A stretch of DNA of 26,191 bases from NCBI GenBank assembly GCA_043809315.1, contig JAZDDX010000037.1:1-26191 (forward strand). Direction: 5' to 3'. The position numbers and the translations under genes are program-made. The notes under the pieces were generated by a model. It made no database searches, was not told where the DNA came from, and was given only the letters and a program-made list of their open reading frames with translations. Source of the stretch: Pseudomonadota bacterium (GTDB taxonomy: Bacteria > Bdellovibrionota_G > JALEGL01 > DATDPG01). Below are positions 1 to 16,986 of the stretch, in pieces (the first letter of the stretch is position 1; every line of letters begins with the position of its first letter).

Positions 1-1
1 T

Positions 2-1060
2 CCCGACTCGGATCACCGGGCCGAGCTGAACCTCGACGGGCAGTTCGAGGCGGATCCCCTCTCCGATTCGTTCGACGGAGGGTTGTTCCGGGCCAGCGTC
101 ATCTGGGGTCATCCGAAGTACGGCCTCACGTTCGAAGGGGGGCGGTTCCTTTTACACCAGGGGTTCGGGATGATCCCGCTCGACGGCGTGCAGGTGATCT
201 GGAGCGGGAAGGCGCGCATCTCACTCCGAACGTACGGGGGGATTCGCCGACAGTACGAGGTGAGAAACTTCTCACGCGGCTCGGTCCTCGTAGGGGGCGC
301 GGTCACCGTCGACCCGATCTCGCTGACCTCGATCACGGCCGGCTACCGCTTCGAGGATGATCTCGCCGGGATCCGCCGCCAATCGGCGATCGGAACGGTC
401 CGCCAGGCGTTTCCGTTCCTCTGGGAGCCGGTGCTGATCGGATCGATCGACTACCAGCTCGGAAACCAAACGATCGGAACCGCGCAGGGAGGAATCGAAC
501 TCCACCCGACCGAGCGAGTGAATCTTCTGGGAGAGGTCGCCCGATATGACGAAACCAACGACGGCTTCCGCTTTGAGAATCGGATCTTTCTCCTCTTCGC
601 CCGAACCCCTCAGTGGATGGAGCGGGGAACGGTTTCGGTCCAGGCGGCCAAGCTCCTGACCTTCCATGCTTCCTACTCCCGCCAGTCGTACGACGTGGTT
701 CCGGGAATCAAGGAGCTGGGACACATGTCGACCGTCGGGGGACACTTTGGGAGCGACACCTCCCGGTTTTCCGGCGACGCTTTGCTCTTCCACGAAAACA
801 GTTACGGCGGACGGGTTTACGGCGGGATCGCCGCGCTCCGCGAACGGATCCTCACGTCGTGGCTCGCCGCTGCCACGTTCGCCGTCGGAAAGTACGACAA
901 AATCACCGGTTCGAACGACTACGCTCTTCACGCCGGACTCGCCTTGAGTCGTGTGTTCAAGACCGGCCTCGAGATGGGGATCGGGAGCGAGTTCAATTCG
1001 AACGTCGATCAGCCGAAAGATTTTCGGGCCGGGGTTTTTGCGAGGTACCGATCGCTATGA
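2..1060 (+). CDS. Outer-membrane beta-barrel protein, probable porin of a porin-cytochrome complex (5' truncated)
   Basis: Frame is open from base 2 (PDSDHRAELNLDGQFE...) to TGA 1058-1060. Many amphipathic beta-strand-like segments with Gly/aromatic alternation (SITAGYRF, TFHASYSRQSY, LHAGLALS, DFRAGVFARY). ATGA overlap with a downstream multiheme lipoprotein. Confidence 0.7.
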   Translation, partial: PDSDHRAELNLDGQFEADPLSDSFDGGLFRASVIWGHPKYGLTFEGGRFLLHQGFGMIPLDGVQVIWSGKARISLRTYGGIRRQYEVRNFSRGSVLVGGAVTVDPISLTSITAGYRFEDDLAGIRRQSAIGTVRQAFPFLWEPVLIGSIDYQLGNQTIGTAQGGIELHPTERVNLLGEVARYDETNDGFRFENRIFLLFARTPQWMERGTVSVQAAKLLTFHASYSRQSYDVVPGIKELGHMSTVGGHFGSDTSRFSGDALLFHENSYGGRVYGGIAALRERILTSWLAAATFAVGKYDKITGSNDYALHAGLALSRVFKTGLEMGIGSEFNSNVDQPKDFRAGVFARYRSL

Positions 1061-1641
1061 GGCTCCGGTTCCTGATCGCGTCGATCGCTTTCCTCTCCCT
1101 CGTCTCCTGCATCAAGGATTTCAACCGGCGGAAGGTCGCTCCGGTCGACCGCAAGATGCGCTGGGAGCTGTTTGACCACGGGAAGCACCAGAAAACATTC
1201 ATCGGCCTCGAGATGAGCTGCCTCAACTGCCATCCGACCCGTCCGAACCTGGAGAAGATCGTCCCCGTCAAATGGAACGGGAAGATCTACACCTGCCACG
1301 ACTGTCATCGGAACGCGACGATGGTGGGGGCCGCGCCGCAGAGGTGCACGATGTGCCACAAGGATCTCGAGCTCTTCCGCCCGAGCGATCACCGTCTCGA
1401 CTGGAGGAACCGCCACGCGATCTTCGCCCGGGTCGAGCCTTCCAAGTGCGCCACCTGTCACGACCCGTCGGTCTGCACCGACTGCCATCTCCAACGGAAT
1501 ACAGTCCGGGTGACGGCGCATCCGCGGACGTTTCTCTACTATCACTCGGTCGAGGCACGCTCCGACCCGCACAAATGCGGTAGCTGTCACCAGATTAACT
1601 TCTGCCGGGATTGTCACCTTCAGAGGGGGGTGACGTTTTGA
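1057..1641 (+). CDS. Heptaheme c-type cytochrome lipoprotein (194 aa)
   Basis: True start is ATG 1057 (ATGA overlap), not 613. Signal peptide with lipobox LVSC. Seven CxxCH motifs: CLNCH, CHDCH, CTMCH, CATCH, CTDCH, CGSCH, CRDCH. FDHGKH c3/c7-type motif. Confidence 0.92.
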   Translation: MRLRFLIASIAFLSLVSCIKDFNRRKVAPVDRKMRWELFDHGKHQKTFIGLEMSCLNCHPTRPNLEKIVPVKWNGKIYTCHDCHRNATMVGAAPQRCTMCHKDLELFRPSDHRLDWRNRHAIFARVEPSKCATCHDPSVCTDCHLQRNTVRVTAHPRTFLYYHSVEARSDPHKCGSCHQINFCRDCHLQRGVTF

Positions 1642-1907
1642 AACGGTGGGGTCTCGTAGTGGCACTGCTCGCCTTCGGATGCGGGCACGATTCGGCCGGT
1701 GAGCGCCAATCGGGCGTCATCTTGACGCTCCAAACGCATGCGCCGGGATGGCAACGGGCCGAGTGCTTCAGCTGCCATCTCCCGAAGAACCTGCATCTCC
1801 CGAACGCGGACACCCCTCCCGGAATGAACCTGGATCAGATTCAGGCGGTCGTGTCGGCCCAAGGGGAAGCGAGTTGCCACCCCTGCCACGGGAACAACGG
1901 TCTCTAG
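1638..1907 (+). CDS. Small diheme c-type cytochrome lipoprotein (89 aa)
   Basis: TTG start at 1638 overlaps the upstream TGA, with purine-rich GAGGGGGG just upstream. MKRWGLVVALLAFGC lipoprotein signal. CFSCH and CHPCH motifs. Confidence 0.85.
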   Translation: MKRWGLVVALLAFGCGHDSAGERQSGVILTLQTHAPGWQRAECFSCHLPKNLHLPNADTPPGMNLDQIQAVVSAQGEASCHPCHGNNGL

Positions 1908-2947
1908 AGCGCGGGTTCCGGGACGTTCCGGGCCGGCTTCTCCCGGTCGTAAGAGTACGTGGGATGGCATCCGCTCTCGCAGCTGCCCCCCGTCTTCGTC
2001 GGCCGGTAATGAAGCGGGATCTCCCACTCGAAGAAGGAAACCGAGGTGCGGATCAGTTTCGGCTGGCTGCTCGCATGCGGGGAATGGCAGTTCCGGCAGG
2101 TGTGCGTCTTGAACCCCTTCCGAACGTGTACGAAGTGCAGGTTCGTCGTCCCGTTCCGGAAGTTGGTTGCCGCATCGGTCTGTTCCAGCTTCACCATCTT
2201 CTCGTCGTGCTCGTGGCACGAGAAGCAGAAGGCGTAGGACGCCGGTTCGAACGGGGCATACAGCCCCGCGGCAAGCGTGGTCTTCAAAAGCTTCGGAAAC
2301 TGTTTCGGCTCGTGGATCTGATGGCACCCGACACAGTCCCCCTTCGCCACCGGGCCGTGTTTGTATGCCGCCCCTTTCACCTCTTTCTCGATCTTCCCGT
2401 GGCAGCCGAAGCAGAGCGGCGACTCTTGTTTCTTCAAAAGATACGCTTGATCGGAAAGGTGGGGATCATGACAGGTCATGCACTGCTCCTTGAACGCCAG
2501 CCCGCCATGCTTGAAATTCATTTTGTCCAGGTTCTCCTGGATGTTCGTGTGGCAGGTCGTGCAAAGATCGGGGACCTTGTCGGTTAGGAGACGGGACTGA
2601 TCGGAGTCGTGCGGAGCGTGACAGCTGCTGCACCCCTCCTTCATCACCTCGTGGATCTTTTTCGGCGCTTTCGCCTCCTCCACGCTGAAATCGGTGTGGC
2701 AGGTCGTGCAGGCCTGGCTCCCGATCTTGGATGGGGCGGCCCCTTCTTTCTTGGAGGGGGGAACGTGGCATGAGTTGCACTCCCCCTCCATGATGAAGTC
2801 GTGTTTGAACTTCTTCTTGGCCACCTGCACGTGGCACTGCGAGGTCACGCACCCCGCCCCGACGTTCGCGTGCGGGCCATCGGCTCCGAGCGAAAGCGAG
2901 GGAAGTGTCGTGACGACCGTCAGAAAGATGGCACACCTGGAGTTCAT
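1904..2947 (-). CDS. Periplasmic multiheme cytochrome c, doubled-CxxCH family (9 canonical plus 2 atypical heme motifs; 347 aa)
   Basis: Probable start ATG 2947 (MNSRCAIFLTVVTTLPSLSLGA, Sec-like signal, no lipobox). CNSCH, CTTCH, CSSCH, CTTCH, CMTCH, CFGCH, CVGCH, CFSCH, CRNCH plus CVTSQCH and CESGCH. Repeated CxxCHxPH...LL...LCxxCH pattern. Confidence 0.92.
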   Translation of the reverse strand: MNSRCAIFLTVVTTLPSLSLGADGPHANVGAGCVTSQCHVQVAKKKFKHDFIMEGECNSCHVPPSKKEGAAPSKIGSQACTTCHTDFSVEEAKAPKKIHEVMKEGCSSCHAPHDSDQSRLLTDKVPDLCTTCHTNIQENLDKMNFKHGGLAFKEQCMTCHDPHLSDQAYLLKKQESPLCFGCHGKIEKEVKGAAYKHGPVAKGDCVGCHQIHEPKQFPKLLKTTLAAGLYAPFEPASYAFCFSCHEHDEKMVKLEQTDAATNFRNGTTNLHFVHVRKGFKTHTCRNCHSPHASSQPKLIRTSVSFFEWEIPLHYRPTKTGGSCESGCHPTYSYDREKPARNVPEPAL

Positions 2948-2957
2948 TCGGAGGACG

Positions 2958-3962
2958 TCAGACTTTTTCCTCGAGCCCGGCCAGGATCGAATCGATGTCA
3001 TCCGTACGGTCCGCCTCCGATCGTTCGAACGTATGCTCCGCCGTGTTCTCCTCGGGCGATTCGCCAAAAATGTGAGGCAGAGATTCTTCCTGCGCCTGCC
3101 CCGGCTCGATCTCGAACGAGTCGATCTGTCTCGGATCCTTCATCTTCGTGATCGTCAATCCCAGATCGATCGAGATGTTCTCGACGATCTCGGGCCCGAT
3201 CGTGGTCGCTTTCAGGATGAACCCCTCGAACAGGGCGTTGTCGGCAATCGTATTGATAAGGCGCGGGATCCCACGGGAATACCGGTGGATCGCTTCCGCG
3301 GCCGTGGGAAGGAAGATTTGCCGCTGAGCGCCGGCGAGACGCATGCGGTGAGCGATATAGTCGCGGCACGAGGGCGCATCGAACGCGTCCAGATGATACT
3401 TGAGCGCCACCCGTTGCAGGAGGGGTGGATCGAGTTTCAGGTAATCCTCGATCTCCGGAAGGCCGAAAAAGATGAAGGTGATCAGCTTCTGATCGGGAAT
3501 CTCCAGGTTCAAGAGGCCGCGGAACTCCTCCATCAGATCCTCCGTCTGCAGCATCTGCGCTTCGTCGATCAGCACCACCGCTTTCTTTCCGGCATCAGCA
3601 ATCTGAAGGAGCCGGCGGTACAATTGGCTTAAGAGTTGGAGTTTGTCGTCGCCCGGCTTCCGGATCCCGAGTTGCTGCGCGATCCTCCGGAGCAGCCAGT
3701 CGGCTGTGATCCCGGAGTGGATGATTACGAGAAGCGCCGCTTCGAACTCCGATTCCGGCAAGTTGTCCAGGAGTCGTCGGGCCAGCGTCGTCTTGCCGGT
3801 TCCGATGTCCCCGACGAGAACGGCCAGCCCTTTCATCTGCCGTGCAACCCGCTCGAGACGGACGATCGCTTCCGCGTGTTGATTCGAGTTGAAGTAGAAC
3901 CGGCTGACGGGGGCGTTGGAGAACGGCTCCTGCTCGAGTCCGTAGAAATCCAGATAACTCAT
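2958..3962 (-). CDS. ExeA/GspA-family AAA+ ATPase
   Basis: N-terminal YLDFYGLEQEPFS, Walker A GDIGTGKT, Walker B VVLIDEAQ, GIPRLIN motif. ATG directly abuts the upstream TAA. Confidence 0.9.
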   Translation of the reverse strand: MSYLDFYGLEQEPFSNAPVSRFYFNSNQHAEAIVRLERVARQMKGLAVLVGDIGTGKTTLARRLLDNLPESEFEAALLVIIHSGITADWLLRRIAQQLGIRKPGDDKLQLLSQLYRRLLQIADAGKKAVVLIDEAQMLQTEDLMEEFRGLLNLEIPDQKLITFIFFGLPEIEDYLKLDPPLLQRVALKYHLDAFDAPSCRDYIAHRMRLAGAQRQIFLPTAAEAIHRYSRGIPRLINTIADNALFEGFILKATTIGPEIVENISIDLGLTITKMKDPRQIDSFEIEPGQAQEESLPHIFGESPEENTAEHTFERSEADRTDDIDSILAGLEEKV

Positions 3963-6548
3963 TTAGATGTAGGAGATCTTAGTCTTCTTCCCGGGAATTT
4001 TCACCACTGATTTGTCCTCGGCCGACGCCTTCTCCGGCGCGGAGGGTGGAGGCGCGGAGCGCCCGAGGTCGAGCTCGAGTTCCTTGGCGCGGCGCCGGCA
4101 GTCGCGGAAGGTCGGATCGACATCGGCCACGCGTGCGAAAAGCTTGTACGCTTCCGTGACGCTCCCGTTCCCGATGTACGCTTCCGCCAATTCGTAGGCC
4201 AGTCCGAGCGCCTCCGCGGATTTCGGAGATACCTGGGCCAGCGCCTTCCGGTAAACGGCAATGGCCGCCGTAAAATCCTTCTTGGTCAGCAGACAGAGCC
4301 CGATCATCGAGGCGCAATCCGCTGCCTGTTTCAAGTCGGCCCCCGCCACCTCGAACTCGTGGATCGCCTCGTCGAGAAGCCCCATTTCTTTATACGCGAT
4401 CCCGAGGTTGTAATGGGTCGCGTAGTCGTCCTTGGCGACGGTGCGAGACACCCCTTTCTTGAACTCGGAGATCACCTCCTCGGGGCTTAAATACACCTCC
4501 TCGTCGGACGACTTCGGACGCGCCAGCTCTTCTTCCAGATCTCGGATCTCTTCTTGGAGCTCCTCGGAGAGATCGAACAGAGCACCGCTCTCCTCGAGGA
4601 CGCGCGCCGGAGCCCTGCCCACTGGCTTCTCTTCCGGCTCGGGGAGGGCGACTTCTTCGCGTGTGATCCGGTTGGTTTTCCGCCGTTCCGGTTCCAGATT
4701 GGCGCGGACCGGTGGCGGCGCGGGATTCACTTCCTTGAGCTCGGCCAGTTTCCGCCGCGCTTCCGGATGATTGGGTGATTTCTCAAGAATCGCGCGATAG
4801 ACCTCTTCCGCCTCCTCCAGTAACCCCTGGCTCGCGAAGAAATCCGCCTCCTCGAGATCGGTCGAGAGATCCTCCGGGGCGGCCTTCGTTTTCGAAAGCG
4901 ACTTCGGTTTCGCGTGGGATTCGACTGCCGTCGGTTCCGGTCCCGGCTCCGGTTCGAACTCGAGAGAGACCTCGATCGCGGGAATTTCCGGCTCTACCGG
5001 AGCCGGAATCGGTTCGGGAGCGGCCTCTTCGTCAACCTCGAATGTAAGCGAAACCGATGCTTCCGGCGGCACCTCGATAACCGGAGCGGTCTCGGCCAGC
5101 TCGGGTGGAACGGAGACCGCGCTCGGTCGCGGGGCGGGTTCCGGCGACGGCGCCGCGACCGCGGAACCTTCGATCTCCGCCGCCATCTCGGGAGGGAGTT
5201 CGAACTCTTTGGCCGACCCGGTCGAAACGACGTCCGGGAGAGAGAACTCCAGGGATTTCTCGGGTGGAACCGCCGGAGCGGCCTCAGCCGGGGGCGATTC
5301 CGGAGCGACCGGCGCTTGATCCGGCCAGGCACCGATCTGTCCGATCTCCTTCTGGATCGCCGAAACCGCGTCGGTAAGATTGAGCGCTTCAGCCGCGGCG
5401 AGAGACTTCTTGAGCGCCGCGTCCAGCCGGTGGAAGTCCCCCACCTGTCGATAGACCTCGACCAGCTTGATCCGGAGCGCCTCGTTGGCCGGTATCGCGG
5501 CAACCGCCTGGTCGAGAGCATCACAGACTTTGGCCATGAGGCCGTACTGAAGGAAGACCTCGACCTCCTCGAACACCTTCTCGACCGGCTTGGCCGATGA
5601 CGGCAACGGCTTTTCCGGAGCAACCACCGGCGGAGCGACGGCCGGAGCGGGTTTCGGCAGACTTTCGACGATCGGTTGGGCAGCGGAAATCAGTCCGAGC
5701 GCCCGAAGCTTCGCGGTGAACCGGTCCCGTTCCTCGAGAAGGCCGTGCTCGTTCGCAAGGTTGATCATCTCGGTGTAGACCGACTTCGCCTTCTCCGGCT
5801 GCTGCAGCTCCGTGAACGCCCGCGCGAGGAATTCCAGGATTTTCAGGTTTTTCGGATCTTTTTGAAAGAGAACCCGGAGCTTGCCGAGCGCCTTCTTCGG
5901 TTCCCCCGACTCGAGATAGACTTCGACCAACTCGAGTTTCTGGGATTCATCCAGGATCCCCGCCGCCTCCATCTTTTCGTAGACGCGGGCTAGCTCCTGC
6001 GTGTTGTTCTTTTTCTTGAGGTCCTCTGCGACCGCAAGGAACTGAGCGACCGACTCGTCGCCGTGTCCCTCTTTCGCGTACAGCTCCGCGAGCTTCAGCT
6101 TGCTGGTGGCGTTCTCCGGCTCCAGCTCCGCCATCTTCTTCAGGATGTCGAGCGATTCCTTCTTGAGCCCCTGCGTCTCGTAGTGACGAACGACGACCTG
6201 ATACTGTTTCATCGCTTCGCTATTGAGGCCGAGGTGCTGATACAGCTCCGCCAACCGGACGTAGATCCGGATCAATCCGGGATCGAGTTTGAGAATCTGC
6301 TTGAAGACCGCAACGGCTTTTAGAAAGAAGCCGTCTTTCGCGTAATGCTCTCCGACCTTCTGATAGGTTTCGTTCGCCGCATCGATATTCCCCAGCTTCG
6401 CGTGGAGATCGCCGATCTTGAGAAGCGTCCGGATGTCGGACGGGTCGTTCTCGACGACGAGAAGGTATTCCTGGATCGCCTCGTCGATCTTCCCCTTCTG
6501 GAGAAGCTTCTGCGCCTTCACCAGGCTCTTGTTTCGGTTATAAGCCAA
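3963..6548 (-). CDS. sgmX: Large TPR scaffold, SgmX (MXAN_5766)-like polar type IV pilus regulator
   Basis: N-terminal TPR array, long Pro/Ala/Glu-rich linker, internal EADFFASQGLLEEA motif, C-terminal TPRs (THYNLGIAYKEMGLLDEAI). Lies between accC and an ExeA-like gene, matching the recalled Myxococcus order. TTG start preceded by GGAG. Confidence 0.75.
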   Translation of the reverse strand: MAYNRNKSLVKAQKLLQKGKIDEAIQEYLLVVENDPSDIRTLLKIGDLHAKLGNIDAANETYQKVGEHYAKDGFFLKAVAVFKQILKLDPGLIRIYVRLAELYQHLGLNSEAMKQYQVVVRHYETQGLKKESLDILKKMAELEPENATSKLKLAELYAKEGHGDESVAQFLAVAEDLKKKNNTQELARVYEKMEAAGILDESQKLELVEVYLESGEPKKALGKLRVLFQKDPKNLKILEFLARAFTELQQPEKAKSVYTEMINLANEHGLLEERDRFTAKLRALGLISAAQPIVESLPKPAPAVAPPVVAPEKPLPSSAKPVEKVFEEVEVFLQYGLMAKVCDALDQAVAAIPANEALRIKLVEVYRQVGDFHRLDAALKKSLAAAEALNLTDAVSAIQKEIGQIGAWPDQAPVAPESPPAEAAPAVPPEKSLEFSLPDVVSTGSAKEFELPPEMAAEIEGSAVAAPSPEPAPRPSAVSVPPELAETAPVIEVPPEASVSLTFEVDEEAAPEPIPAPVEPEIPAIEVSLEFEPEPGPEPTAVESHAKPKSLSKTKAAPEDLSTDLEEADFFASQGLLEEAEEVYRAILEKSPNHPEARRKLAELKEVNPAPPPVRANLEPERRKTNRITREEVALPEPEEKPVGRAPARVLEESGALFDLSEELQEEIRDLEEELARPKSSDEEVYLSPEEVISEFKKGVSRTVAKDDYATHYNLGIAYKEMGLLDEAIHEFEVAGADLKQAADCASMIGLCLLTKKDFTAAIAVYRKALAQVSPKSAEALGLAYELAEAYIGNGSVTEAYKLFARVADVDPTFRDCRRRAKELELDLGRSAPPPSAPEKASAEDKSVVKIPGKKTKISYI

Positions 6549-6585
6549 GACTCTCCATCTCGGGGATATGACCCCCCAACCCTCT

Positions 6586-6615
6586 ATTATAAGCGGAGGA
6601 AGGGGAATACGCGAA
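6586..6615 (-). promoter_or_regulatory. Putative sigma70 promoter for sgmX-exeA-cytochrome
   Basis: Perfect TATAAT on the minus strand at 6586-6591 in the 93-bp accC-sgmX gap. Only a weak -35 (TTCGCG, 18-bp spacer). Confidence 0.45.
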
Positions 6616-6641
6616 CAATAGTATGCCTCATTGATGGCATT

Positions 6642-7988
6642 TTATTTGTTTAAATTGAATAACTTGTCGAGAAACTTCACACTGACGTTGCCTTTTAGGA
6701 ACTCTTCGTTCGTTAGGATTTTCTTGTGCAGCGGAATGTTCGTATGAATCCCCTCCACCAGGAACTCGTCGAGCGCGACCAATCCTTTCCGGATCGCCTC
6801 TTCCCGGTTGTCGCCGTGGACGATCAATTTGCCGATCAACGAGTCATAATAAGGGCTTACGACATAGCCGTGGTAAGCGCCCGAATCGACGCGAACCCCC
6901 CGCCCCCCGGGGACGTGGAACGCCGTGATCTGTCCGGCCGACGGATAGAATTTCTCCGGGTCTTCCGCGTTGATCCTCATTTCGATCGCGTGCCCGCGGA
7001 ATCGGACCTCGTCCTGCCGGAACGGGAGACGTTCTCCGGCCGCCAGACGGATCTGCAACTTCATCAGGTCGATCCCCGTGATCTCCTCGGTGATCGGATG
7101 CTCGACTTGGATCCGGGTGTTCATCTCGAGGAAGTAAAAGTTGAGTTTCGAATCCGCGAGAAACTCGACGGTTCCGACATTCCGGTACCCGATCTTGCCG
7201 ATCGCCTCGGTCACGACATGTCCCATCCGTTCCCGGATTTCGGGGGTTACGACGTAGGCGGTCGCCTCCTCGACGACCTTCTGGTACCGGCGCTGGATCG
7301 AACAATCCCTCTCACCCAAATGGACCACGTTCCCGAAATGGTCCGCCACCACCTGAAATTCGATGTGCCGGGCATCCTCCAGGAAACGCTCCAGATAGAC
7401 TTTCGAATTCCCGAACGCCGCCTGCGCCTCGGCTTGAGCGGTCTTGAGCGTGTTCCAGAGTTGATCCATGGATCGGATGATCTTGATCCCTTTCCCGCCG
7501 CCGCCGGCCGTCGCCTTCACGATGAGCGGAAGCCCGACCTCCTCCACGGCCGAGGTGGTCGCTTTCGGGTCCTCTAGATTCACCTCGATGCTCGGAAGCA
7601 TCGGAAGCCCCGCCTTCCTCATCGTGGCGCGCGCCGCGAGTTTATCCCCCATCGCAACGATGTTCTCCGAGGTCGGCCCGATGAAGACGAGGCCGCACTT
7701 TTCGCAAACGTTCGCGAACTCCGCATTCTCCGCCAGGAAGCCGTATCCCGGATGGATCGCCTCGGAGTTCGTCACTTCCGCCGCGCTCAGGATCTTCGGA
7801 ATCGCGAGATAGCTCTCCCGCGCCGCCGCCGGCCCGATGCAGACCGACTCGTCCGCCATCTTGACGTGGAGCGATTCCCGGTCGACGTCCGAATGCACGG
7901 CCACCGTGGCGATCCCCAGCTCCTTACACGCGCGGATCACGCGGAGGGCGATCTCGCCTCGATTGGCTACCAGGATTTTGCGGAACAT
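6642..7988 (-). CDS. accC: Acetyl-CoA carboxylase, biotin carboxylase subunit
   Basis: KILVANRGEIA, HPGYGFLAENA, GGGGKG, ERDCSIQRR, EMNTRIQVEH, YYDSLIGK motifs. Confidence 0.97.
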   Translation of the reverse strand: MFRKILVANRGEIALRVIRACKELGIATVAVHSDVDRESLHVKMADESVCIGPAAARESYLAIPKILSAAEVTNSEAIHPGYGFLAENAEFANVCEKCGLVFIGPTSENIVAMGDKLAARATMRKAGLPMLPSIEVNLEDPKATTSAVEEVGLPLIVKATAGGGGKGIKIIRSMDQLWNTLKTAQAEAQAAFGNSKVYLERFLEDARHIEFQVVADHFGNVVHLGERDCSIQRRYQKVVEEATAYVVTPEIRERMGHVVTEAIGKIGYRNVGTVEFLADSKLNFYFLEMNTRIQVEHPITEEITGIDLMKLQIRLAAGERLPFRQDEVRFRGHAIEMRINAEDPEKFYPSAGQITAFHVPGGRGVRVDSGAYHGYVVSPYYDSLIGKLIVHGDNREEAIRKGLVALDEFLVEGIHTNIPLHKKILTNEEFLKGNVSVKFLDKLFNLNK

Positions 7989-7992
7989 ACGG

Positions 7993-8472
7993 TCAGCCGA
8001 GCGGTTCGATCCGGAAGAGTTTTTCCCCGAACTCCACCGGTTGCCCGTTCTCCGGGTAGATGTCCAAGATCTTTCCGTCGTAGTCGCATTCGAGTTCGTT
8101 CATCAGCTTCATCGCTTCCACGATGCAGAGGATCTGCCCCTTCCGAACCGTCTGACCGACCTGGGCGTATGGATCCGCGTCGGGCGAGGGGGCCCGATAG
8201 AAAGTCCCGACGAATGGCGACGTCACGAAGATGTCCTTGCTGTTCGGGACCTCCTCAGCCGCCGGCGCGTGGATGATCGCGGCCGCCTTGGGCGATTCCG
8301 CCGGATGGGGTGCTGGAACCGAATGCGGCATCAGGTGAGCGGTCGGCATCATCACCTGCTGGGGCTTCCCCCGCTCGACCCGGACCTTGAGCTCCCCTTG
8401 CGCGATCTCGACTTCGGTAAAATCGGTCTTCTCGATCAAGCGGAAAATCTCTTTTAGTTCCCGAAGATTCAT
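7993..8472 (-). CDS. accB: Acetyl-CoA carboxylase biotin carboxyl carrier protein
   Basis: SPFVGTFYRAPSP and EAMKLMNE biotinyl-lysine motif; adjacent to accC. Confidence 0.97.
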   Translation of the reverse strand: MNLRELKEIFRLIEKTDFTEVEIAQGELKVRVERGKPQQVMMPTAHLMPHSVPAPHPAESPKAAAIIHAPAAEEVPNSKDIFVTSPFVGTFYRAPSPDADPYAQVGQTVRKGQILCIVEAMKLMNELECDYDGKILDIYPENGQPVEFGEKLFRIEPLG

Positions 8473-8521: not shown

Positions 8522-8881
8522 CTACAATTCCTTCCGGATCGCCGGGGCAACTCGTCGCAGGAAAAACCGCCCCTGGCCCAGGTTCGAACCCGATCCCAGC
8601 ATCAACAGCATGAAATACTCGTCGTTCAGAACGCGCAAAACGAACCGGTTCTTCTCGGTGGAAACCACCAGCTCTTCCAAACCGCCCGCGTCGTTTCCAA
8701 GACTCACCTTGGCCGCTTCCTTCAGGAGACGACTGAGCTCGACTCCGATCTCCTGATACGACGCCTGGCCGCCCGCCGGCTTGGCGTCTGCCACGACGAT
8801 CCCGTCAAATCCCATCAGAGCCGCCGCCTGCGCCCCCTCCACGCCATCGACGACCGCCTTCAATTCGTTCGTGAAGTTCAT
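8522..8881 (-). CDS. mglC: Roadblock/LC7 protein, MglC ortholog
   Basis: 119-aa Roadblock pattern (AAALMGFDGIVV; NLGQGRF). F25-D26-I28 match the numbering of the MglB-binding FDI surface recalled for M. xanthus MglC. Located between pilQ/TPR and accB. Confidence 0.85.
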   Translation of the reverse strand: MNFTNELKAVVDGVEGAQAAALMGFDGIVVADAKPAGGQASYQEIGVELSRLLKEAAKVSLGNDAGGLEELVVSTEKNRFVLRVLNDEYFMLLMLGSGSNLGQGRFFLRRVAPAIRKEL

Positions 8882-9573
8882 GCCGCCTTTCTCCTTCGCG
8901 CGGAAATCCGCGCCAGAAGGCTCTCCAGAACCTGTCGTTTCCCGGCGGGGGGGGCGGGAGCTTTCCGCGGGGGTGAGAGCTGCGCCGCGATCTCCCGCGC
9001 CGCCTGCGCCAACTTCTCGTTTCTCGGCTCCGCCGCCGAGAGCCTCCGGTAGATCGCCAGAGCTTCCTCGAGATGCCCCTGCGACCGGTACAGGTTCGCC
9101 AACGTGGCCGTTTCCGCCGGCGGCGCGGCTTCCGTTGGCTTCGACACCGGGGCGACTTTGGGTTGAGGTGCCGACAATTTCGCAAGCTGTTGGGCGACCC
9201 AGGGGTCGGACGGAGCAAGGGCAATGAGTTGCTTCAAGAGCCCGGCGGCACGGTCCGCCGATCCTTCCTGGATGTGAATCTGGGCGAGAAGGCGGTTCGC
9301 GATCAGGTTGTCGGGAGCGAAGTTCAAGACCTCCTCGAAAAATCCCCGGGCAAGGTCGTAGTCCCCGTTTTCGAAATAGGCCCGCGCCAAAGCCACCTTC
9401 GCGCCGAGATAGTTGGGGTGGCGTGCCAGCCCATCGCGCGCAACGGCGATCGCTTCGTCGTACCGGCCCAGCTTGCGATAGATGTCGGAGAGAGGGACGA
9501 ACGCCCTCGATTTCGGATCGTTCGCGATCGCCTCCGTGTGTTTTCGGATCTCGGCCTCGAACGGTTCCCTCAC
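8878..9573 (-). CDS. Tetratricopeptide repeat protein
   Basis: DPKSRAFVPLSDIYRKLGRYDEAI TPRs, Pro-rich linker, ETATLANLYRSQGHLEEALAIY C-terminal TPR. ATGA overlap with mglC. Confidence 0.88.
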   Translation of the reverse strand: MREPFEAEIRKHTEAIANDPKSRAFVPLSDIYRKLGRYDEAIAVARDGLARHPNYLGAKVALARAYFENGDYDLARGFFEEVLNFAPDNLIANRLLAQIHIQEGSADRAAGLLKQLIALAPSDPWVAQQLAKLSAPQPKVAPVSKPTEAAPPAETATLANLYRSQGHLEEALAIYRRLSAAEPRNEKLAQAAREIAAQLSPPRKAPAPPAGKRQVLESLLARISARRRKAA

Positions 9574-9606: not shown

Positions 9607-10167
9607 CTACTGCGCCGTGGAGAGGGTCGTTGTGCCGCCGCCGGTCGTCGTCGAGAGCTTCGATACCGCAATCGACAGCGCCGCTTCCTGCCCGCCCCCG
9701 ATGATGGCGTTGAAGGTGGCGGTATAGGAATCGACCCCGAGATCGGCCGGGGCCGCGAGCCGAACCGCCATATCGTATCCGCCTCGAGCGTCGGTTGCGA
9801 AGTTGTACGGGTTGGAAACCGTTTGTAGTTTCGAGTGGTCGAACGTCGCTCGACCGTCGTTCCCCGCCCAATCCATGAGATCGCACTTGTCGCAGGTTGT
9901 TACGACATAGATGTTGTTTCCGGGACCGCTCGTCGGGTCGGGCCCTGTGGAACCCGGGAAGATCGGATCGATTCCAACGGGAACCGTCACGTTTACATGA
10001 ACGTTGACCGTTGTCGCGGTGTCGATGGCTCGCGTCGTTGGTCCGGTAACGGCAACCGAGGACCCCTCCGGAGCGTTGAAGCCGTTGGGGGCCGCGTTAC
10101 AACTCAGCATCCAGAACCCCGCTAACAAGAGCGGAAGATTTAAAATTAAACTTTTTTTCGTGTCCAT
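9607..10167 (-). CDS. Hypothetical beta-rich (possibly Ig-like) lipoprotein (186 aa)
   Basis: ATG 10167 preceded by GGGGG, 10 nt after the pilQ stop. MDTKKSLILNLPLLLAGFWMLSC lipoprotein signal. Thr/Val/Gly-rich body with CDKC. Confidence 0.75.
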   Translation of the reverse strand: MDTKKSLILNLPLLLAGFWMLSCNAAPNGFNAPEGSSVAVTGPTTRAIDTATTVNVHVNVTVPVGIDPIFPGSTGPDPTSGPGNNIYVVTTCDKCDLMDWAGNDGRATFDHSKLQTVSNPYNFATDARGGYDMAVRLAAPADLGVDSYTATFNAIIGGGQEAALSIAVSKLSTTTGGGTTTLSTAQ

Positions 10168-10177
10168 CGTGATCCCC

Positions 10178-13100
10178 CTAATCCCGGATATCCCGGATCG
10201 CTTCCCGTTCATCCCCAACGATCCTCGGTGTGACAAAGATCAAGAGCTCCGTCCGCCGGAGAGACTTCTGGTAGTTCCGGAACAGCGCCCCCAGAATCGG
10301 GATCTTCGACACGAACGGGAGACGATCCTGCGAATTCGCCGTCCCCGTCGAATAGATCCCGCCCAACACCGTCGTGTTGCCGCTCTTGACCAGCACCTCC
10401 GTGTTGGCGCTTCGCGTGTCGATCAGCGGATTCCCCTGAACCAACTGCGCGAAGTTCGGTTCGCTCCGGGTCGCGCTGATCGTCATCAGGATCGATCCGT
10501 CGTTCGTGATGTGCGGGGTCACCGAGAGCGTGGTCGCGGCGCTTTCGAAACGGACGTTCGACCCGGCATTCGCCGTCTGGGTCTGGAACGGGATCATCGA
10601 CCCGGCCGTGATCGTGGCTGACTTGTTATCCAATACCGTCACCTTGGGTGCCGAAACGAGTTTCGCGGTTCCCTCTTGCTCGCCCAAGGTCAATCCCAGA
10701 TCGAGATCGACGATGTTGTTGATGCTTCCCAGCTTGATTCCGGCGGTCGTGTTGATCACACCGTTGTTGGGGAAGTTCATCGTGAACGGGGAGATCGCGA
10801 TCGAGTTCGGGAAGAAGATCCCGGTCGGATTCCCCGTCGCGGCGGTGAACCTCGTGTTCCCGCTCCACGTGATCCCGAAGGACCGGGTAAAGGTCTGCGT
10901 GGCTTCGACGATCCGTGACTCGATCGACACCTGCGGGGTCTGCGTGTCGAGGATGTCGACCATCTTGCGGGCCTTATCCAGATTCTCCCGGATGTCCTTG
11001 ATGATCAGCGTGTTCGTCCGGCTGTCGATGTCGACCGTGCCCCGCTCACTCAAGACCGACGCAACCTGCTTTGTGAGCGTCGCGGCCTGGGCAAAACTGA
11101 CCGGTTTGAAGAGGACGTCAAGCGGTTTCGCCGCCTTGGCCGCCCGCATGGTGGCGGCCGCTGACTCGCGCTCCCGGCGCAGGCGATCGGCCGGCGCGAT
11201 CCGGACGATGTTCCCGTACCTCTCGAACCAAAGACCTCGCGTCTGGAGAATGATCGCAAACGCCTGATCCCACGGTACGTCATCCAGGCGGATCGTCACC
11301 CGCCCATCGACGTCGTCCGAGATGATCATGTTGAATTTTGAAATCTCCGCGATCAGCCGGAAGATGCTCCGCACCTCGGCGTCCTTGAAATCCAGGGAGA
11401 TCTTGCGGCCCACGAACTTCCGGCCTTCGTATTCGCCGGAGAGAATCGCCCCCATGTCGGTCAGCGGTTCCCCCTTGCTCATGCTCTCACTCATGAACGC
11501 TTCCCGGACGTACCGGTACTCTCGGGCCGGAACGGCCCGGGGGCCCCCATCCTCCGTCCCTTTCGCGGGCGTCACCCCTTCCGCACTCATGACTCTCTCG
11601 GAAGGAGCTCCCACTTCCCTTCCCGTCCCTGTCTCGAACTGACTCTCCGTTAACCCCTCGGCCGGAAGCTGGGGAGGCGGTGCCGCCTTGGAAACGGTCG
11701 GGGTTCGCTTGCGGAGAATCTGGGGGGGGATGTCGACATCCACGTAGAGATTGCTCCCCTCTTGCGTAACGGTATACGGCATTTGTTGTTCGATCTCGAC
11801 GATGAACGCAGCCGTCTTGGCCCTCTTGTCCGCTTTGGGGGAGACACTTACGATCGCCGTCTGAAATTCCCGCGTATCGAATTCCCGGCGAAGCGCCTGT
11901 TTCTCGAACTTCGCGTTCGCGATCGTGACGGCGAATTTTCCTGGCGCGATGTCCTGGGTCGTGTACTCCGCACCCGAATTGCTCAGCCCGATGATCAGGC
12001 GGGACTTATTGACGTCCTTCATCTGTTTGAACCCGAGTCCCGTGATCCGAACCGGTTTCCCCGGGGTAACGGGAGGAGCGGCGATCGCCGGAAGAGCCGC
12101 ATCCGTCGGAGCCGCCGCTTCCGGAACGGGAACGTCGGCGACCGGAATTTCGGCCGCGGGGACTTCCGCCGTTGCGGACGGAGTCTCTCCCGTCGCCACC
12201 GTCGCGATGTTCAACACGAGGGCGTTTCCGTCCCGCGTGATCGTATAGGCGGGGGGGCCCGAGGAGGATGCATCCAACACGATCCGAATGTCCGCCCCCT
12301 TCGCTTTCTTCCCCCCGATCCGAAGAGCCGACACTTCCGGAGTTCCCAAGTTGATGCTCTTTCCTCCCGGATAGGCATTCTTCATCCCCTTCAGATCAAC
12401 GACCACACGATGGGGATTCTTCAGAACGAAATCTTGATAATTCTCCACGGGGCCGTTTCCGATCAATCGGACGGTCGTCCCGGTCGTCGAGGAAGAATAT
12501 TGAATGTCGACCAGTTCCGTCGCTTGGGACGGAGCCGGAGCCACGGCAGGAGACGTGGCGGCGGAAATTTCGGCGGCCGGGATTTCGGCGCCTGGAACCC
12601 ACTCGATCGGCGGGACCGCAGTGGGAGAAGGCAATGCGACCGCTTCGGAAGCGAGAGGAGAGGTTTCGGGTGACGCGGCATCCGGGGATGGGCCGGGGGT
12701 CGATCCGAGTCCGGGGATTTCCGGCAATCCGGCGGGGGCCGAGGAGCTCATGATCTCCCCGCCCGCGGAATTGACCAACAACACCAATTTGGATCCCTGC
12801 GATTCGACCTGGTACTCCATCGGCTGCGTGAGTCCCACGACGACACGGCTCAGGGAACTCTTGGCGTCGTCAAACTGATTCGCCGTGATCTGGGTGATCC
12901 CCCCCTTGTTCATATCTTGCGAGGCGGGAAGCTGTCCGAGCTTGGTGTCGGTCAGGTCGACGATGATTCGATCCGGATCGGTCAATTTAAAGATGTTCGG
13001 GGACATCGGGGCGGTCCCTTCGAGCACGACCGCTGTCGTTTTTCCGCGCTCTTCCATCTTCACCGAGACCAGCTGATTCATCGAACGGCCGCCGTCGGAC

Positions 13101-13198
13101 GTGCCGGCCGCCGTGTTCGGCGCCGATTTCTTTCCCGCGCAGCCGAGCAAGAGCGCAAGCGCCAGAAAGCCGGCGAGGCAGTTACGTAGGGCTACCAT
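10178..13198 (-). CDS. pilQ: Type IV pilus secretin PilQ with lipoprotein signal and about three AMIN domains
   Basis: Start ATG 13198 after GGAGG; LALALLLGC lipobox. AMIN-like motifs (FKLTDPDRIIVDL, FVLKNPHRVVVDL). GRKISLDFKDA, VPWDQA, DSRTNTLII, LSVTPHIT, IPILGALF, ELLIFVTPRI secretin motifs. Confidence 0.96.
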   Translation of the reverse strand: MVALRNCLAGFLALALLLGCAGKKSAPNTAAGTSDGGRSMNQLVSVKMEERGKTTAVVLEGTAPMSPNIFKLTDPDRIIVDLTDTKLGQLPASQDMNKGGITQITANQFDDAKSSLSRVVVGLTQPMEYQVESQGSKLVLLVNSAGGEIMSSSAPAGLPEIPGLGSTPGPSPDAASPETSPLASEAVALPSPTAVPPIEWVPGAEIPAAEISAATSPAVAPAPSQATELVDIQYSSSTTGTTVRLIGNGPVENYQDFVLKNPHRVVVDLKGMKNAYPGGKSINLGTPEVSALRIGGKKAKGADIRIVLDASSSGPPAYTITRDGNALVLNIATVATGETPSATAEVPAAEIPVADVPVPEAAAPTDAALPAIAAPPVTPGKPVRITGLGFKQMKDVNKSRLIIGLSNSGAEYTTQDIAPGKFAVTIANAKFEKQALRREFDTREFQTAIVSVSPKADKRAKTAAFIVEIEQQMPYTVTQEGSNLYVDVDIPPQILRKRTPTVSKAAPPPQLPAEGLTESQFETGTGREVGAPSERVMSAEGVTPAKGTEDGGPRAVPAREYRYVREAFMSESMSKGEPLTDMGAILSGEYEGRKFVGRKISLDFKDAEVRSIFRLIAEISKFNMIISDDVDGRVTIRLDDVPWDQAFAIILQTRGLWFERYGNIVRIAPADRLRRERESAAATMRAAKAAKPLDVLFKPVSFAQAATLTKQVASVLSERGTVDIDSRTNTLIIKDIRENLDKARKMVDILDTQTPQVSIESRIVEATQTFTRSFGITWSGNTRFTAATGNPTGIFFPNSIAISPFTMNFPNNGVINTTAGIKLGSINNIVDLDLGLTLGEQEGTAKLVSAPKVTVLDNKSATITAGSMIPFQTQTANAGSNVRFESAATTLSVTPHITNDGSILMTISATRSEPNFAQLVQGNPLIDTRSANTEVLVKSGNTTVLGGIYSTGTANSQDRLPFVSKIPILGALFRNYQKSLRRTELLIFVTPRIVGDEREAIRDIRD

Positions 13199-13223
13199 AT
13201 CTGACCTTCCTCCCATGTTTCGA

Positions 13224-13796
13224 TTACTCATCGGACATCCTCACCGTCAGTCCCGGCTTTTCTTTCGCCTTCTCTTCTTTCCCGTGGATCTCGAAGTTCG
13301 ACTCTCGGACGACCAGCTTCCCGGTTGGATCCCGATATTCTTCCTCGATGAATACCTCGCGCCGCGTGATCCGGGAGACACGCCCCCGGTTCTTTCCCAC
13401 CCGACTGTTCATCTTCACGATGTAACTGTACCCGTCCGGCGCGCGAATCCGCGCGCGCGGATCGGAGATCCCCCATACGATTCCCGTCAGATGCAATTCA
13501 TCCAATTCGTACCGTTCCAACGGAGCGCGGGGTGCCGCCATATCCTCTTTGACGAGTTCCCCCGCGAACCCCTTGAACGGATCCCTTTTTCCGACCGGAT
13601 TGTAGAAATATTCGTCTTTGGCCGTCAGGAACGGAGACGGCACCTCCACCTTGGTCGCCTCCCCCGCCGCTCGGCCGACCGCCGGTTTCGCTGGTTCCGG
13701 GACGGTTGTCGGAGGCAGTTCCGTCGAACAGGAGATCAGCATAACCCCTGCGACGAGAAGAGAACCCGCGAGCTTCCAGCGGAATCGGGCCGTCAT
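13224..13796 (-). CDS. pilP: Type IV pilus assembly lipoprotein PilP
   Basis: Lipobox LISC; YNPVGKRDPF, PLERYELDELHLTGIVW, VGKNRGRV. Confidence 0.93.
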   Translation of the reverse strand: MTARFRWKLAGSLLVAGVMLISCSTELPPTTVPEPAKPAVGRAAGEATKVEVPSPFLTAKDEYFYNPVGKRDPFKGFAGELVKEDMAAPRAPLERYELDELHLTGIVWGISDPRARIRAPDGYSYIVKMNSRVGKNRGRVSRITRREVFIEEEYRDPTGKLVVRESNFEIHGKEEKAKEKPGLTVRMSDE

Positions 13797-14371
13797 CGCC
13801 CACCTCCGCCGCTGAACATGAAGGTCGTAGCCCGGCAGTCGACATTCAGGACAATCGTATTCCCGACCGCCTTGGGAGAGGAAAAGACCAGGTTCGAAAT
13901 GTTCACGATCCGGCTCAGTTTCCCTACCTGGTCGATGAACGAAGCGATGTCGTGATAGGTCCCGTCGATCTTCAGATCCATGCCCAAGTCGCTATAGAAC
14001 CCCTTGTTCGACTGTCCGGCGGGCTTGAAGCTCAAGAGCCCGATGTTGGTCTTTTTTGCGACGATCGAAAGCTGTCGGTACAGCGTGTGAACATCCGCTT
14101 CGTTCGGGAGAAGAGCCAATGCCTGCTTCAACTGCTCGTTCAAGATATTGACCTCCTCCTGGAACTTCGGGAGGTTGTCCGCGATCGCCTGGTTCTCCAG
14201 GAGCCGCACCTTGAGTTCGGAGCTCTGCTTCCTCAGTCGGTCAAGCTCTTCCTTCTTGGGCGTGAAAAACATCCAGAATTCCACCGCCGCCACCGCCGCC
14301 AGAATGATGGCCAGGACAACCAGCTTTACGACGATCGGCGCTTTTCCGAACTGCTCCAGGAGCTTCGTCAT
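13793..14371 (-). CDS. pilO: Type IV pilus assembly protein PilO
   Basis: N-terminal TM, coiled coil, LLPNEADV, GTYHDIASFIDQVGKLSRIVNI. Confidence 0.94.
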   Translation of the reverse strand: MTKLLEQFGKAPIVVKLVVLAIILAAVAAVEFWMFFTPKKEELDRLRKQSSELKVRLLENQAIADNLPKFQEEVNILNEQLKQALALLPNEADVHTLYRQLSIVAKKTNIGLLSFKPAGQSNKGFYSDLGMDLKIDGTYHDIASFIDQVGKLSRIVNISNLVFSSPKAVGNTIVLNVDCRATTFMFSGGGGR

Positions 14372-14928
14372 GACTTGGCTCCCCCGGGGTTGTAGTTCAC
14401 GAGGCAGTTCACGCTGAACTTCTGAATCGTTCTGCCTCCTTCCCCGCCTTGCGACACCTGGATCAGCTGGACGTTATAGAAAAACTTGGATCCCCGCAGG
14501 TTGTCGATGAAGTCGGCGACGGTCGGCCCGTCGGCCGCGGCCCCTTCCAACGTGAGCTGTTTCTCCATTTCGCGGAACGTCGTGATCCAGGCCTTTCGCG
14601 GAAGCACGTAGCCGAACTCCTCCATGAACTTGACCGGACCGGTCCGCTTCTCGTTCAGATCCTTGATCGTGTTGATCTTCGCTTCGAGGTCTCTTCGCTT
14701 CCGCTTGTAATCCTCCACCTCGGCGATCACGGCCTGTAACTGGTTGATCTTCTGTTGAAGATCGTTCTGGACGATCCGCTCGGACTCGACCCTCTTCTCC
14801 ATCTCGCGGTTCTTCCACCAGCAAATCACCAGGGCGACCGCGATGACGATCACTCCCGCGATCAACTGGAAGATCGCCCCTTCTTTCTTCCGTTCCGCCT
14901 TGGTCGGGATCAGGTTTATGCGGATCAT
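14368..14928 (-). CDS. pilN: Type IV pilus assembly protein PilN
   Basis: MIRINLIP PilM-binding motif, TM helix, coiled coil. Confidence 0.94.
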   Translation of the reverse strand: MIRINLIPTKAERKKEGAIFQLIAGVIVIAVALVICWWKNREMEKRVESERIVQNDLQQKINQLQAVIAEVEDYKRKRRDLEAKINTIKDLNEKRTGPVKFMEEFGYVLPRKAWITTFREMEKQLTLEGAAADGPTVADFIDNLRGSKFFYNVQLIQVSQGGEGGRTIQKFSVNCLVNYNPGGAKS

Positions 14929-16001
14929 CGATCCCCCACGTAGCGCAGAGCCAATCCCACCGCGACGGCGGCCGCCGGAGCCACCTCGGTGATGTGAGCC
15001 ACGTTGAAGTTCTTTTCATTGATCGTCACGCTCTTGAACGGGTTCGCGATCTCAGTCGGGATCCCAAGTTTCGCCTCCACCACCCCGGGAAGCCCCGGAA
15101 CCTTCGAGCTCCCACCCATCAGGTAGACCTTGGTGATTTTGTCGTCCGACGCGGTAGCCGCGAAAAAATCGAGCGACCGCTGGATTTCGATCGCGACCGA
15201 CTCGGAGACCGACCGGATGATCCCACCCACCTCCTGGGGGATGACCGCTTCGGTCGTCTCGGCCGGGGAACTCAAGTCGCCCCCCAATTTGAGCGACTCC
15301 GCCTCTTCGTGACTCACGTTGAGCTGTTTCTGGATCTCCTCCGTGAACTGCGCCCCGCCGATCGAAATATCCCGGGTGAAGGTGGAGACCCCGCCCCGCA
15401 GGATGTTGACGTTGGTCGCGCTCGCCCCGATGTTGGCCAGGACGACCGTCCCCTCCCCCGTGAATCCATAATTCGCCTCGAACATGTTCTCGATCGCGAA
15501 GGCGTCCACGTCCATCACCAAGGGGGTGAGCCCGGCCTCATGCAGAACGGACATGTGATCGTTGATCATGTCCTTCTTGGCCGCGACCAGCAGAACCTCC
15601 ATCTGCCCCACGTTCTGTTCGTCCGGGCCGATGATCTGCACGTCGAGGTTGACGTCGGTGATGTCGAACGGGATGTACTGCTCCGCCTCCCACTGGATCG
15701 ACTCCTCGAGTTCCTGCTCCGTCATCTGGGGAAGCTTGATCTTCTTGACGATCACGGAGTGCCCCGAGACCGAGGTGGCGACCTCGCGGTTCTTGATCTT
15801 CTCTGCAGCGACAAGTTCGGCAATCGCCTCCACGACCGCACTGGAGTTCATGATGGCGCCGTCGACGATCGCCTCCGGGGGGAGCGGCACCATCCGGAAG
15901 TGGACGAGCAACATCCCATTCTTGCTCTGCCGGATCTCAACCGCCTTGACCGCGCTGGACCCGATGTCGAGACCGACTAAGTTCCTTTTTCCGCCGAACA
16001 T
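14925..16001 (-). CDS. pilM: Type IV pilus assembly protein PilM (actin-like)
   Basis: VGLDIGSSAVK, WEAEQYIPF, VLLVAAKK, IGGAQFT, LMGGSS, VAVGLALR. Confidence 0.96.
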   Translation of the reverse strand: MFGGKRNLVGLDIGSSAVKAVEIRQSKNGMLLVHFRMVPLPPEAIVDGAIMNSSAVVEAIAELVAAEKIKNREVATSVSGHSVIVKKIKLPQMTEQELEESIQWEAEQYIPFDITDVNLDVQIIGPDEQNVGQMEVLLVAAKKDMINDHMSVLHEAGLTPLVMDVDAFAIENMFEANYGFTGEGTVVLANIGASATNVNILRGGVSTFTRDISIGGAQFTEEIQKQLNVSHEEAESLKLGGDLSSPAETTEAVIPQEVGGIIRSVSESVAIEIQRSLDFFAATASDDKITKVYLMGGSSKVPGLPGVVEAKLGIPTEIANPFKSVTINEKNFNVAHITEVAPAAAVAVGLALRYVGDR

Positions 16002-16410: not shown

Positions 16411-16986
16411 ATGACTGAACCAGCGCAGCGTGACCATGACACGAGCCGTTGGAAACGACTCTTCCGAAGGAAGTTCTACCTCTATCCGTTCCTGAACCGG
16501 AAGCTGCAGTTCAGTTTCGCGGCCCTTCTCGCCGTGATTGGGCTTGGAAACGCGATCTATCTCCTTCTCCTCTTCTATTTCTACGCCCGCGAGACGTTCG
16601 ACCTCCTGGTCCCCTACATCCCGGAGTATATTGCGGTCGACCCGATTTTCGCGCACCACACGAGGATCTTCCTCCGGACGGTGGGGTTCATCCTGATCCC
16701 GGAGACCGTCTTGCTGGTCCTGTGGGGGCTGTTCTTCGCCCACCGGATCGCCGGCCCCTTGTACAAGATCGATCGGACGTTCCGTGAGATCTCAGGTGGG
16801 AAAGAACCGAAACCGATCCACCTGCGAGATGGGGACATGTTGCTGGATGTGGCCGATCAGGCGAATCTCGCAATCGCCGGTTTGTCCGGACAGCGCAAGG
16901 AGATCGCAACGGCACTTGCGGAACTCGAAGCGGGGGATGCCAAGTCGGCGGGTACCCGACTCAAGAAGCTCATCCGCCCAGAATAA
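16411..16986 (+). CDS. Two-TM membrane protein with HAMP-like domain and no output domain
   Basis: AAGGAG SD; two hydrophobic helices, then AHRIAGPLYKI...IHLRDGDMLLDVADQAN HAMP-like signature and a short coiled coil. Confidence 0.8.
   Translation: MTEPAQRDHDTSRWKRLFRRKFYLYPFLNRKLQFSFAALLAVIGLGNAIYLLLLFYFYARETFDLLVPYIPEYIAVDPIFAHHTRIFLRTVGFILIPETVLLVLWGLFFAHRIAGPLYKIDRTFREISGGKEPKPIHLRDGDMLLDVADQANLAIAGLSGQRKEIATALAELEAGDAKSAGTRLKKLIRPE

Follow-up and report, generated by a model that had tools for sequence, protein, structure and literature searches.

An MtrA-like multihaem cytochrome gene behind an sgmX-exeA-type operon is probably one part of a rearranged porin-cytochrome-like module

How does a gene for a multihaem cytochrome come to stand at the end of an operon that is associated with type IV pilus polarity? 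The question is raised by a contig of 26,191 nucleotides (nt), C37, which was analysed over its whole length (the window) and belongs to genome G000, a 2.42 Mb metagenome-type assembly in 44 contigs from an uncultured subsurface lineage with small genomes that is labelled Bdellovibrionota. On its reverse strand, a gene for an SgmX-like TPR protein (6548..3963) is followed by a gene for an ExeA-like AAA_22 ATPase (3962..2958) and then by cyt347 (1904..2947), which encodes an MtrA/DmsE-like multihaem cytochrome of 347 amino acids (aa). The original prediction, made from the window by itself, expected tamB and tamA in this third position and read the cytochrome as a sign that electron transfer is coupled to surface contact or that twitching polarity receives redox input, with a simple rearrangement as its fallback. 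Gene order in related genomes supports the fallback. The cytochrome is probably the MtrA-like subunit of a porin-cytochrome-like module conserved in this lineage, which would have been placed behind exeA by ordinary rearrangement.

The junctions are as tight as first described. The TAA stop of the sgmX-like gene (3965-3963) abuts the ATG of the exeA-like gene at 3962, giving TAAATG, and a 10-nt spacer (CGTCCTCCGA, 2957-2948) separates the TGA of the latter (2960-2958) from the ATG of the cyt347 open reading frame (ORF) at 2947, which lies on the same strand. An in-frame ATG further upstream was discarded as the start of cyt347, the MNSRC start at 2947 being a better fit to the N-termini of its orthologues. 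Tight junctions are usual for this operon: in the Myxococcus xanthus locus used as reference (L075), the last position of sgmX is 8967 and the first of exeA is 8968, with tamB beginning 5 nt past exeA. The spacer is also a synteny breakpoint relative to the genomes of the same family (G001-G004), as a DNA alignment of the exeA 3′ ends of all five genomes shows conservation as far as the stop codon and no relatedness beyond it.

Forty genomes of relatives were searched with the ATPase, which matched in 18 of 41 genomes including G000 (expectation value E ≤ 1e-10), and the 12 best orthologous exeA loci were retrieved, one of them (G034) on a contig that stops 0.5 kb past exeA. G000 is the sole representative of its own genus in this set; the relatives also include the one genome of a sister family (G005) and another member of the same phylum (G015). 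All four same-family genomes (loci L036, L034, L035 and L033 for G001, G002, G003 and G004, respectively) keep the order pilQ-...-accB-accC-sgmX-exeA, and lgt2, a second lgt paralogue, comes within 6–19 nt of the exeA end in three of them, with a TIG-domain gene standing before lgt2 in G002. The family slot after exeA can be described as an envelope lipoprotein and disulfide set, consisting of lgt2 and a VKOR/DsbA fusion; three of the four genomes have a DUF255 thioredoxin gene between the two, and G001 has VKOR/DsbA only. A tblastn search of G000 (1e-8) found no DUF255 homologue. In G005, exeA is followed by a gene for a 743-aa protein, an opposite-strand tauE and lgt2, and in G015 and G040 by genes for TamB and an Omp85 protein. 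The 743-aa protein (L037:2954-5185) has a signal peptide and matches no Pfam or NCBIfam family. Downstream ORFs with more than one CxxCH motif were absent from the relatives' loci (0/12).

A wider profile scan, taking one genome per species, gave 80 exeA loci, mostly from Myxococcota, two of which apparently repeat earlier loci. Where at least 1 kb of upstream sequence was available, sgmX was present in 61 of 70 loci, and where at least 5 kb was available downstream, tamB followed exeA in 46 of 58, as it does in M. xanthus; the others had lgt2 (n = 1) or different genes, mostly on the opposite strand (n = 11). No ORF with three or more CxxCH motifs was found within about 9 kb of exeA in any of the 80. 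Conversely, exeA was absent from all 80 metagenome loci of the wider cyt347 family (about 450 aa, 13 CxxCH, 31–41% identity), in a scan whose hidden Markov model controls were positive on L048-L050, L137, L033 and L075. Hence this survey, which the original prediction had called for, agrees with its expectation that tamBA is the usual follower of sgmX-exeA and that cyt347 holds the place of tamB, and it found no cytochrome in that place outside G000. The tamAB genes it had asked to have located lie elsewhere in G000 (C36:1325-8012), encoding TamB (PF04357, 114.6 bits) and an Omp85 homologue, and not directly downstream of exeA. The slot is variable, with tamBA there among Myxococcota and in some relatives, lgt2-thioredoxin-VKOR within the family and the cytochrome here.

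On the far side of the cytochrome, the neighbourhood continues on a second contig. When reverse-complemented, contig C18 (L051, 6658 nt) has an exact overlap of 141 nt with window positions 1-141, and the two can be joined into one continuous locus, the ORF of an outer-membrane barrel and its alignment with orthologues both running across the join. Beyond the barrel gene C18 carries tauE, a 2Fe-2S ferredoxin gene (fdx), lgt2 and VKOR/DsbA, hence family synteny resumes about 4.5 kb past exeA. The joined order is sgmX, exeA, cyt347, then on the opposite strand cyt3, cyt2, the barrel gene, tauE and fdx, followed by lgt2 and VKOR. This bears on whether the exeA-cyt347 junction is an assembly chimera of two genome places or two organisms, for which one could cite the metagenome-type assembly in 44 contigs and the end of the contig inside the barrel gene. 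We consider a chimera extremely improbable, since it would not restore tauE and lgt2-VKOR, the neighbours of exeA in G001-G005. Further, guanine-cytosine content is even across 1-7000, and a contig of 151 nt from DNA run X1 bridges the junction (2892-3042) with 0 differences, although it does not count as independent support because this run may be the assembly's own source.

The genes that converge on cyt347 appear to be its partners. The barrel gene, OMP418, occupies 2..1060 on the forward strand with its 3′ 352 codons, the first 66 or so codons being on C18, where it starts 10 nt past the tauE stop (or 40 nt, if the second GTG is used). Its stop is overlapped by the ATG of cyt2 (1057..1641, forward strand; ATGA), which encodes a cytochrome of 194 aa with seven CxxCH motifs, a lipobox-like LVSC and a Pfam c7/c3 match, and shares 49% identity with its orthologues in G001 and G002 and 32–34% with that in G004. 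It is followed by cyt3 (1635..1907, forward strand; ORF from 1611, likely GTG start at 1635), encoding a small, probable lipoprotein cytochrome with two CxxCH motifs, homologues of which (about 100 aa, two CxxCH) adjoin cyt2 in G001, G002 and G004. Read by eye, a cysteine follows the hydrophobic leader of cyt2 in three of the four genomes and of cyt3 in all four. The TAG stops of cyt347 and cyt3 overlap in the palindrome CTAG at 1904-1907. As this leaves no intergenic DNA or terminator between the two genes, the converging units may each run antisense into the other.

Adjacency of the barrel gene, cyt347, cyt2 and cyt3 was found in G000, G001, G002 and G004, and the orthologues are reciprocal best hits. 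Their layout differs: G004 has all four packed tightly into one co-directional operon, G001 and G002 each have about 90–100 nt between cyt347 and its three partners, which are transcribed divergently from it, and in G015 the cyt347 orthologue precedes the barrel gene, which is the only one of the partners to adjoin it. The G015 barrel orthologue (L137, G015:C61, 678-2045) is split into two ORFs (678-1451 and 1455-2045) and may be broken or mis-sequenced. The barrel family is present in five of the phylum's 17 genomes, always beside the cytochrome. Outside G000, none of these modules adjoins exeA; the best cyt347 matches are 1.42 Mb from it on the same chromosome (G004) or on contigs other than that of exeA (G001 and G002), and G003 has no cyt347 match. 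A barrel, a multihaem cytochrome with a signal peptide and lipoprotein-type multihaem cytochromes are adjacent, which is the gene content of a porin-cytochrome (Pcc)-type cluster. On sequence and structural models, we regard the four genes as a porin-cytochrome-like module, which by analogy would move electrons across the outer membrane.

The assignment of cyt347 as the MtrA-like subunit draws on motifs, profiles and fold. The protein has a Sec-type leader without a lipobox and matches Pfam PF09699 at 2e-40. It carries nine CxxCH motifs together with one CX4CH and one CX3CH, the latter two being invariant in 41 homologues, for a total of 11 predicted haem sites. Against the MtrA/DmsE decahaem family TIGR03508 it scores 79.4 bits over residues 36-212, below the cut-off of 192.2, and it has a sub-threshold NCBIfam match to the GSU2203 family as well. 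A phmmer search of the PDB gave a sole match, 6r2q_A (E 5e-8), which we take to be MtrA in the Mtr complex structure. The same chain was the only match at E ≤ 0.001 in a Foldseek search (E 9.4e-7, the next being 0.24) with an AlphaFold2 model (predicted local distance difference test, pLDDT, 82.9; built without haems), with template modelling scores of 0.46 (query) and 0.58 (target) over 267 columns at 25% identity. The modelled protein can thus be described as having an MtrA-like fold. A metagenome scan with cyt347 alone recovered no relative; the closest homologue, P0152 (63% identity), lies on a contig of 23 kb.

The barrel is less familiar. No Pfam or NCBIfam family was matched by OMP418 (0 NCBIfam matches for the G004 orthologue), no Pfam family is consistent across 50 members, and there was no match by sequence to the MtrB/PioB family. 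A plain homologue search recovered only the query itself, and an exhaustive profile search gave 186 representatives of about 410–440 aa. The AlphaFold2 model of the G002 orthologue, which is 40% identical to the window copy, has a pLDDT of 92.3 and shows a barrel of 22 strands and about 385 mature residues, in which the loops are short and a plug domain is absent; Foldseek matched it to generic barrels only, with ushers ranked top. MtrA sits inside its partner barrel; complex prediction for the G002 barrel and its cyt347 orthologue gave a score of 0.00, below the mark, which speaks neither for nor against such an arrangement here. An MtrA-like cytochrome paired with an undescribed barrel family of about 410 aa and 22 predicted strands would constitute a compact variant of the porin-cytochrome conduit.

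MtrB, for comparison, has about 700 aa and 26 strands. The module is similar to MtrCAB of Shewanella in that cyt347 matches 6r2q_A in both sequence and fold and that its gene adjoins one for a large barrel, modelled with no plug. It differs in the haem sites of cyt347 (11 predicted, including CX4CH and CX3CH, rather than ten CxxCH), in its score under the DmsE cut-off, in the smaller predicted barrel without an MtrB/PioB match, and in having 7-CxxCH and 2-CxxCH cytochromes in place of an MtrC-like decahaem. As far as the excerpts of PMC4282303 and PMC4245776 describe the OmaB/OmbB/OmcB Pcc clusters of Geobacter, these have other numbers of haems and another gene order than the G000 module, in which no regulator of the orfR type was seen and whose barrel matched no sequence family. 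Another parallel is the putative mtrAB operon of magnetotactic Bdellovibrionota, where, in the part of PMC13200544 available, an MtrA-like cytochrome also lies beside a barrel gene in metagenome-assembled genomes labelled Bdellovibrionota. Those genes are reported as detectable MtrA and MtrB homologues (E<1e-64 and <1e-45), unlike the G000 barrel, which gave no such match. Work on Aridivitia deals with a different phylum and has no bearing on the module.

The operon in front of the cytochrome is itself of the expected type. The 861-aa TPR protein, about 200 aa shorter than M. xanthus SgmX (1052 aa), shares 44% identity with it in an N-terminal stretch of 281 aa and 37% in a C-terminal one of 263 aa, so both TPR blocks are homologous, and the neighbourhood pilQ...accB-accC-TPR-exeA is common to both. 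Its residues 4-275 match positions 2-273 of the NCBIfam SgmX model NF052243 with 367 bits, under the cut-off of 1800. SgmX binds MglA-GTP and activates pili at the leading pole; by homology and gene order, we call the G000 protein SgmX-like. The ATPase, encoded by a single-copy gene in G000, has a PF13401 match (6e-25) and the Walker A motif GDIGTGKT, and shares 66% identity with the protein encoded between sgmX and tamB in M. xanthus L075, of which it is an orthologue (MXAN_5765-type). ExeA/GspA proteins, ATPases of type II secretion, characteristically carry a C-terminal peptidoglycan-binding domain. Because no such domain was found in the ATPase among 20 Pfam families listed, and its best NCBIfam match, TIGR03015, scores 199 bits against a cut-off of 324, exeA is used here as a label only.

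The operons that the original prediction cited from the literature were confirmed. In the consulted excerpts of Milner 2014 (PMC3983030), bd2492, bd2494 and bd2495 of Bdellovibrio bacteriovorus are co-transcribed and syntenic with MXAN_5763-5766 of M. xanthus, with MXAN_5765 in between, and tamB and tamA are the followers of the polar TPR gene; in those of Potapova 2020 (PMC7519303), MXAN_5766 is SgmX. The locus in G000 resembles sgmX-MXAN_5765-tamB-tamA and bd2492-bd2494-bd2495 in its SgmX-like TPR protein, orthologous ATPase, abutting codons and the pilMNOPQ and accBC genes upstream, and departs from them in having tamB/tamA on C36 and a cytochrome first after exeA.

Could the cytochrome nevertheless have been recruited to this operon, with electron transfer or a redox signal co-expressed with leading-pole type IV pilus activation? 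In Geobacter, pilus genes are needed for the export of cytochrome filaments. A precedent for a cytochrome c in type IVa pilus formation is offered by TfcP, as described in the part of PMC8833165 available. The slot carries envelope systems in other genomes (tamBA, or lgt2-thioredoxin-VKOR), and cyt347 follows exeA on the same strand across a 10-nt gap with no terminator-like site. We regard functional coupling as very unlikely all the same. The original prediction had named a linkage confined to this assembly as what would speak against it, and that is what all sets searched returned (0/12, 0/80, 0/80). The conserved neighbours of cyt347 are the barrel and two other cytochromes and not sgmX or exeA, and the module's other half shows the same kind of fusion to the unrelated tauE, which fits an insertion accident better than design. 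The proposal that electron transfer is coupled to surface contact, or that redox state feeds into twitching polarity, is therefore not upheld. The adjacency should not be cited as evidence for a coupling of polarity control to electron transfer, because it was found in one genome only.

Transcription of cyt347 is a separate matter. Read-through from exeA is likely, given the gap of 10 nt, and a consensus scan saw no terminator-like site in the spacer (2957-2948). The same scan found no sigma-70-like site in 1400-7000, a search too crude to exclude a promoter. It is conceivable, though unlikely, that cyt347 is expressed from a separate promoter within the 3′ part of exeA, so that it is not co-regulated with sgmX-exeA and the adjacency is positional. 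On C18, the fdx ATG (C18:1498, reverse strand) and the lgt2 TTG (C18:1516, forward strand) are divergent and 17 nt apart, hence at least one promoter inside coding DNA must exist in G000, and the orthologues in G001 and G002 are separate transcription units, divergent from the barrel operon. Against such a promoter stand the outcome of the crude scan and the 3′ end of exeA, which is conserved as coding sequence to its stop in all five family genomes with no imported promoter segment visible; moreover, an internal promoter would not block read-through from exeA.

In a groundwater metatranscriptome (RNA run X2), four contigs were identical to parts of sgmX (3995-4153, 4672-4823, 5355-5526 and 6223-6577). 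The deepest (depth 16.7) is at the sgmX 5′ end, 6223-6577, and indicates presence in the RNA library only. No X2 contig lies on exeA or cyt347, making this run uninformative on co-transcription, and RNA runs X3 and X4 gave no contig matching the locus.

Returning to rearrangement as the preferred explanation, the observed anatomy, the orthology of the genes, the conserved module and an exeA linkage seen nowhere else in the sets searched can be ordered as follows. In G000 alone, the module lies between exeA and the resident tauE-fdx and lgt2-VKOR genes, with its halves convergent and each starting right behind a resident stop codon, that of exeA for cyt347 and that of tauE for the barrel gene. 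Transcription of cyt347 would now occur mainly by read-through from sgmX-exeA, in which case co-transcription would be a by-product of the rearrangement and not a selected link between redox chemistry and the pilus. A possible route, on which we can only speculate, is a circular permutation of the divergent layout of G001 and G002, opened in its promoter region. Both halves lack intergenic DNA upstream, since exeA homology ends at the stop codon and the barrel gene starts 10–40 nt past the tauE stop. We think it distinctly doubtful that the module arrived promoterless in the strict sense, with two resident operons driving its halves and the MtrA-like subunit made only when the SgmX operon is on; if this were true, the conduit would be completed in step with pilus-based surface motility or mineral attachment. 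Halves spliced 10–40 nt behind resident genes offer a clean natural case for the expression of transplanted genes.

Several points weigh against this explanation. Since cyt347 follows on the same strand after 10 nt, with no terminator-like site between, it is likely to be co-transcribed with sgmX-exeA, and such a de facto link in regulation could have been co-opted. With G000 alone representing its genus, the arrangement may be shared by a clade or confined to one strain. No barrel of the OMP418 family adjoins the cytochrome in any of the 80 metagenome loci from its wider family, and the module consequently rests on five related genomes of one small phylum. P0152, the nearest cyt347 homologue, stands outside the loci compared, and the function as a conduit is putative, being read from genes and models.

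Neighbours in the wider-family metagenome loci include other multihaem ORFs, TPR or AhpC-TPR proteins and NHL proteins, and have no bearing on the module. In L152, L179, L188, L190 and L199, relatives of cyt347 are followed by a TPR protein of about 300–340 aa, once fused to an AhpC/redoxin domain, and NHL-repeat proteins occur near cyt347 relatives in L154 and L161, in a context unlike that in G000.

Upstream of sgmX, all on the reverse strand, lie its conserved neighbours accC (6642-7988) and accB (7993-8472), assigned by Pfam, in an order shared by family relatives and Myxococcota. They are preceded by genes for a 231-aa TPR protein (8878-9573; Pfam) and a 209-aa ORF without a Pfam family (9607-10236), which is conserved after pilQ in G001 and G002, and by the Pfam-assigned pilQ (10178-13231) and pilP, pilO, pilN and pilM (13224-16001). 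Between pilM and rplS there is an ORF of 591 aa (16970-18745, reverse strand) with no Pfam family. In G000 as a whole, twelve stop-to-stop ORFs with at least three CxxCH motifs were counted, clustered on C24 (77–82 kb) and C39 (33–44 kb), and the highest motif count, 27 CxxCH, belongs to an ORF that has no linkage to pilus genes, at C26:65024-67129.

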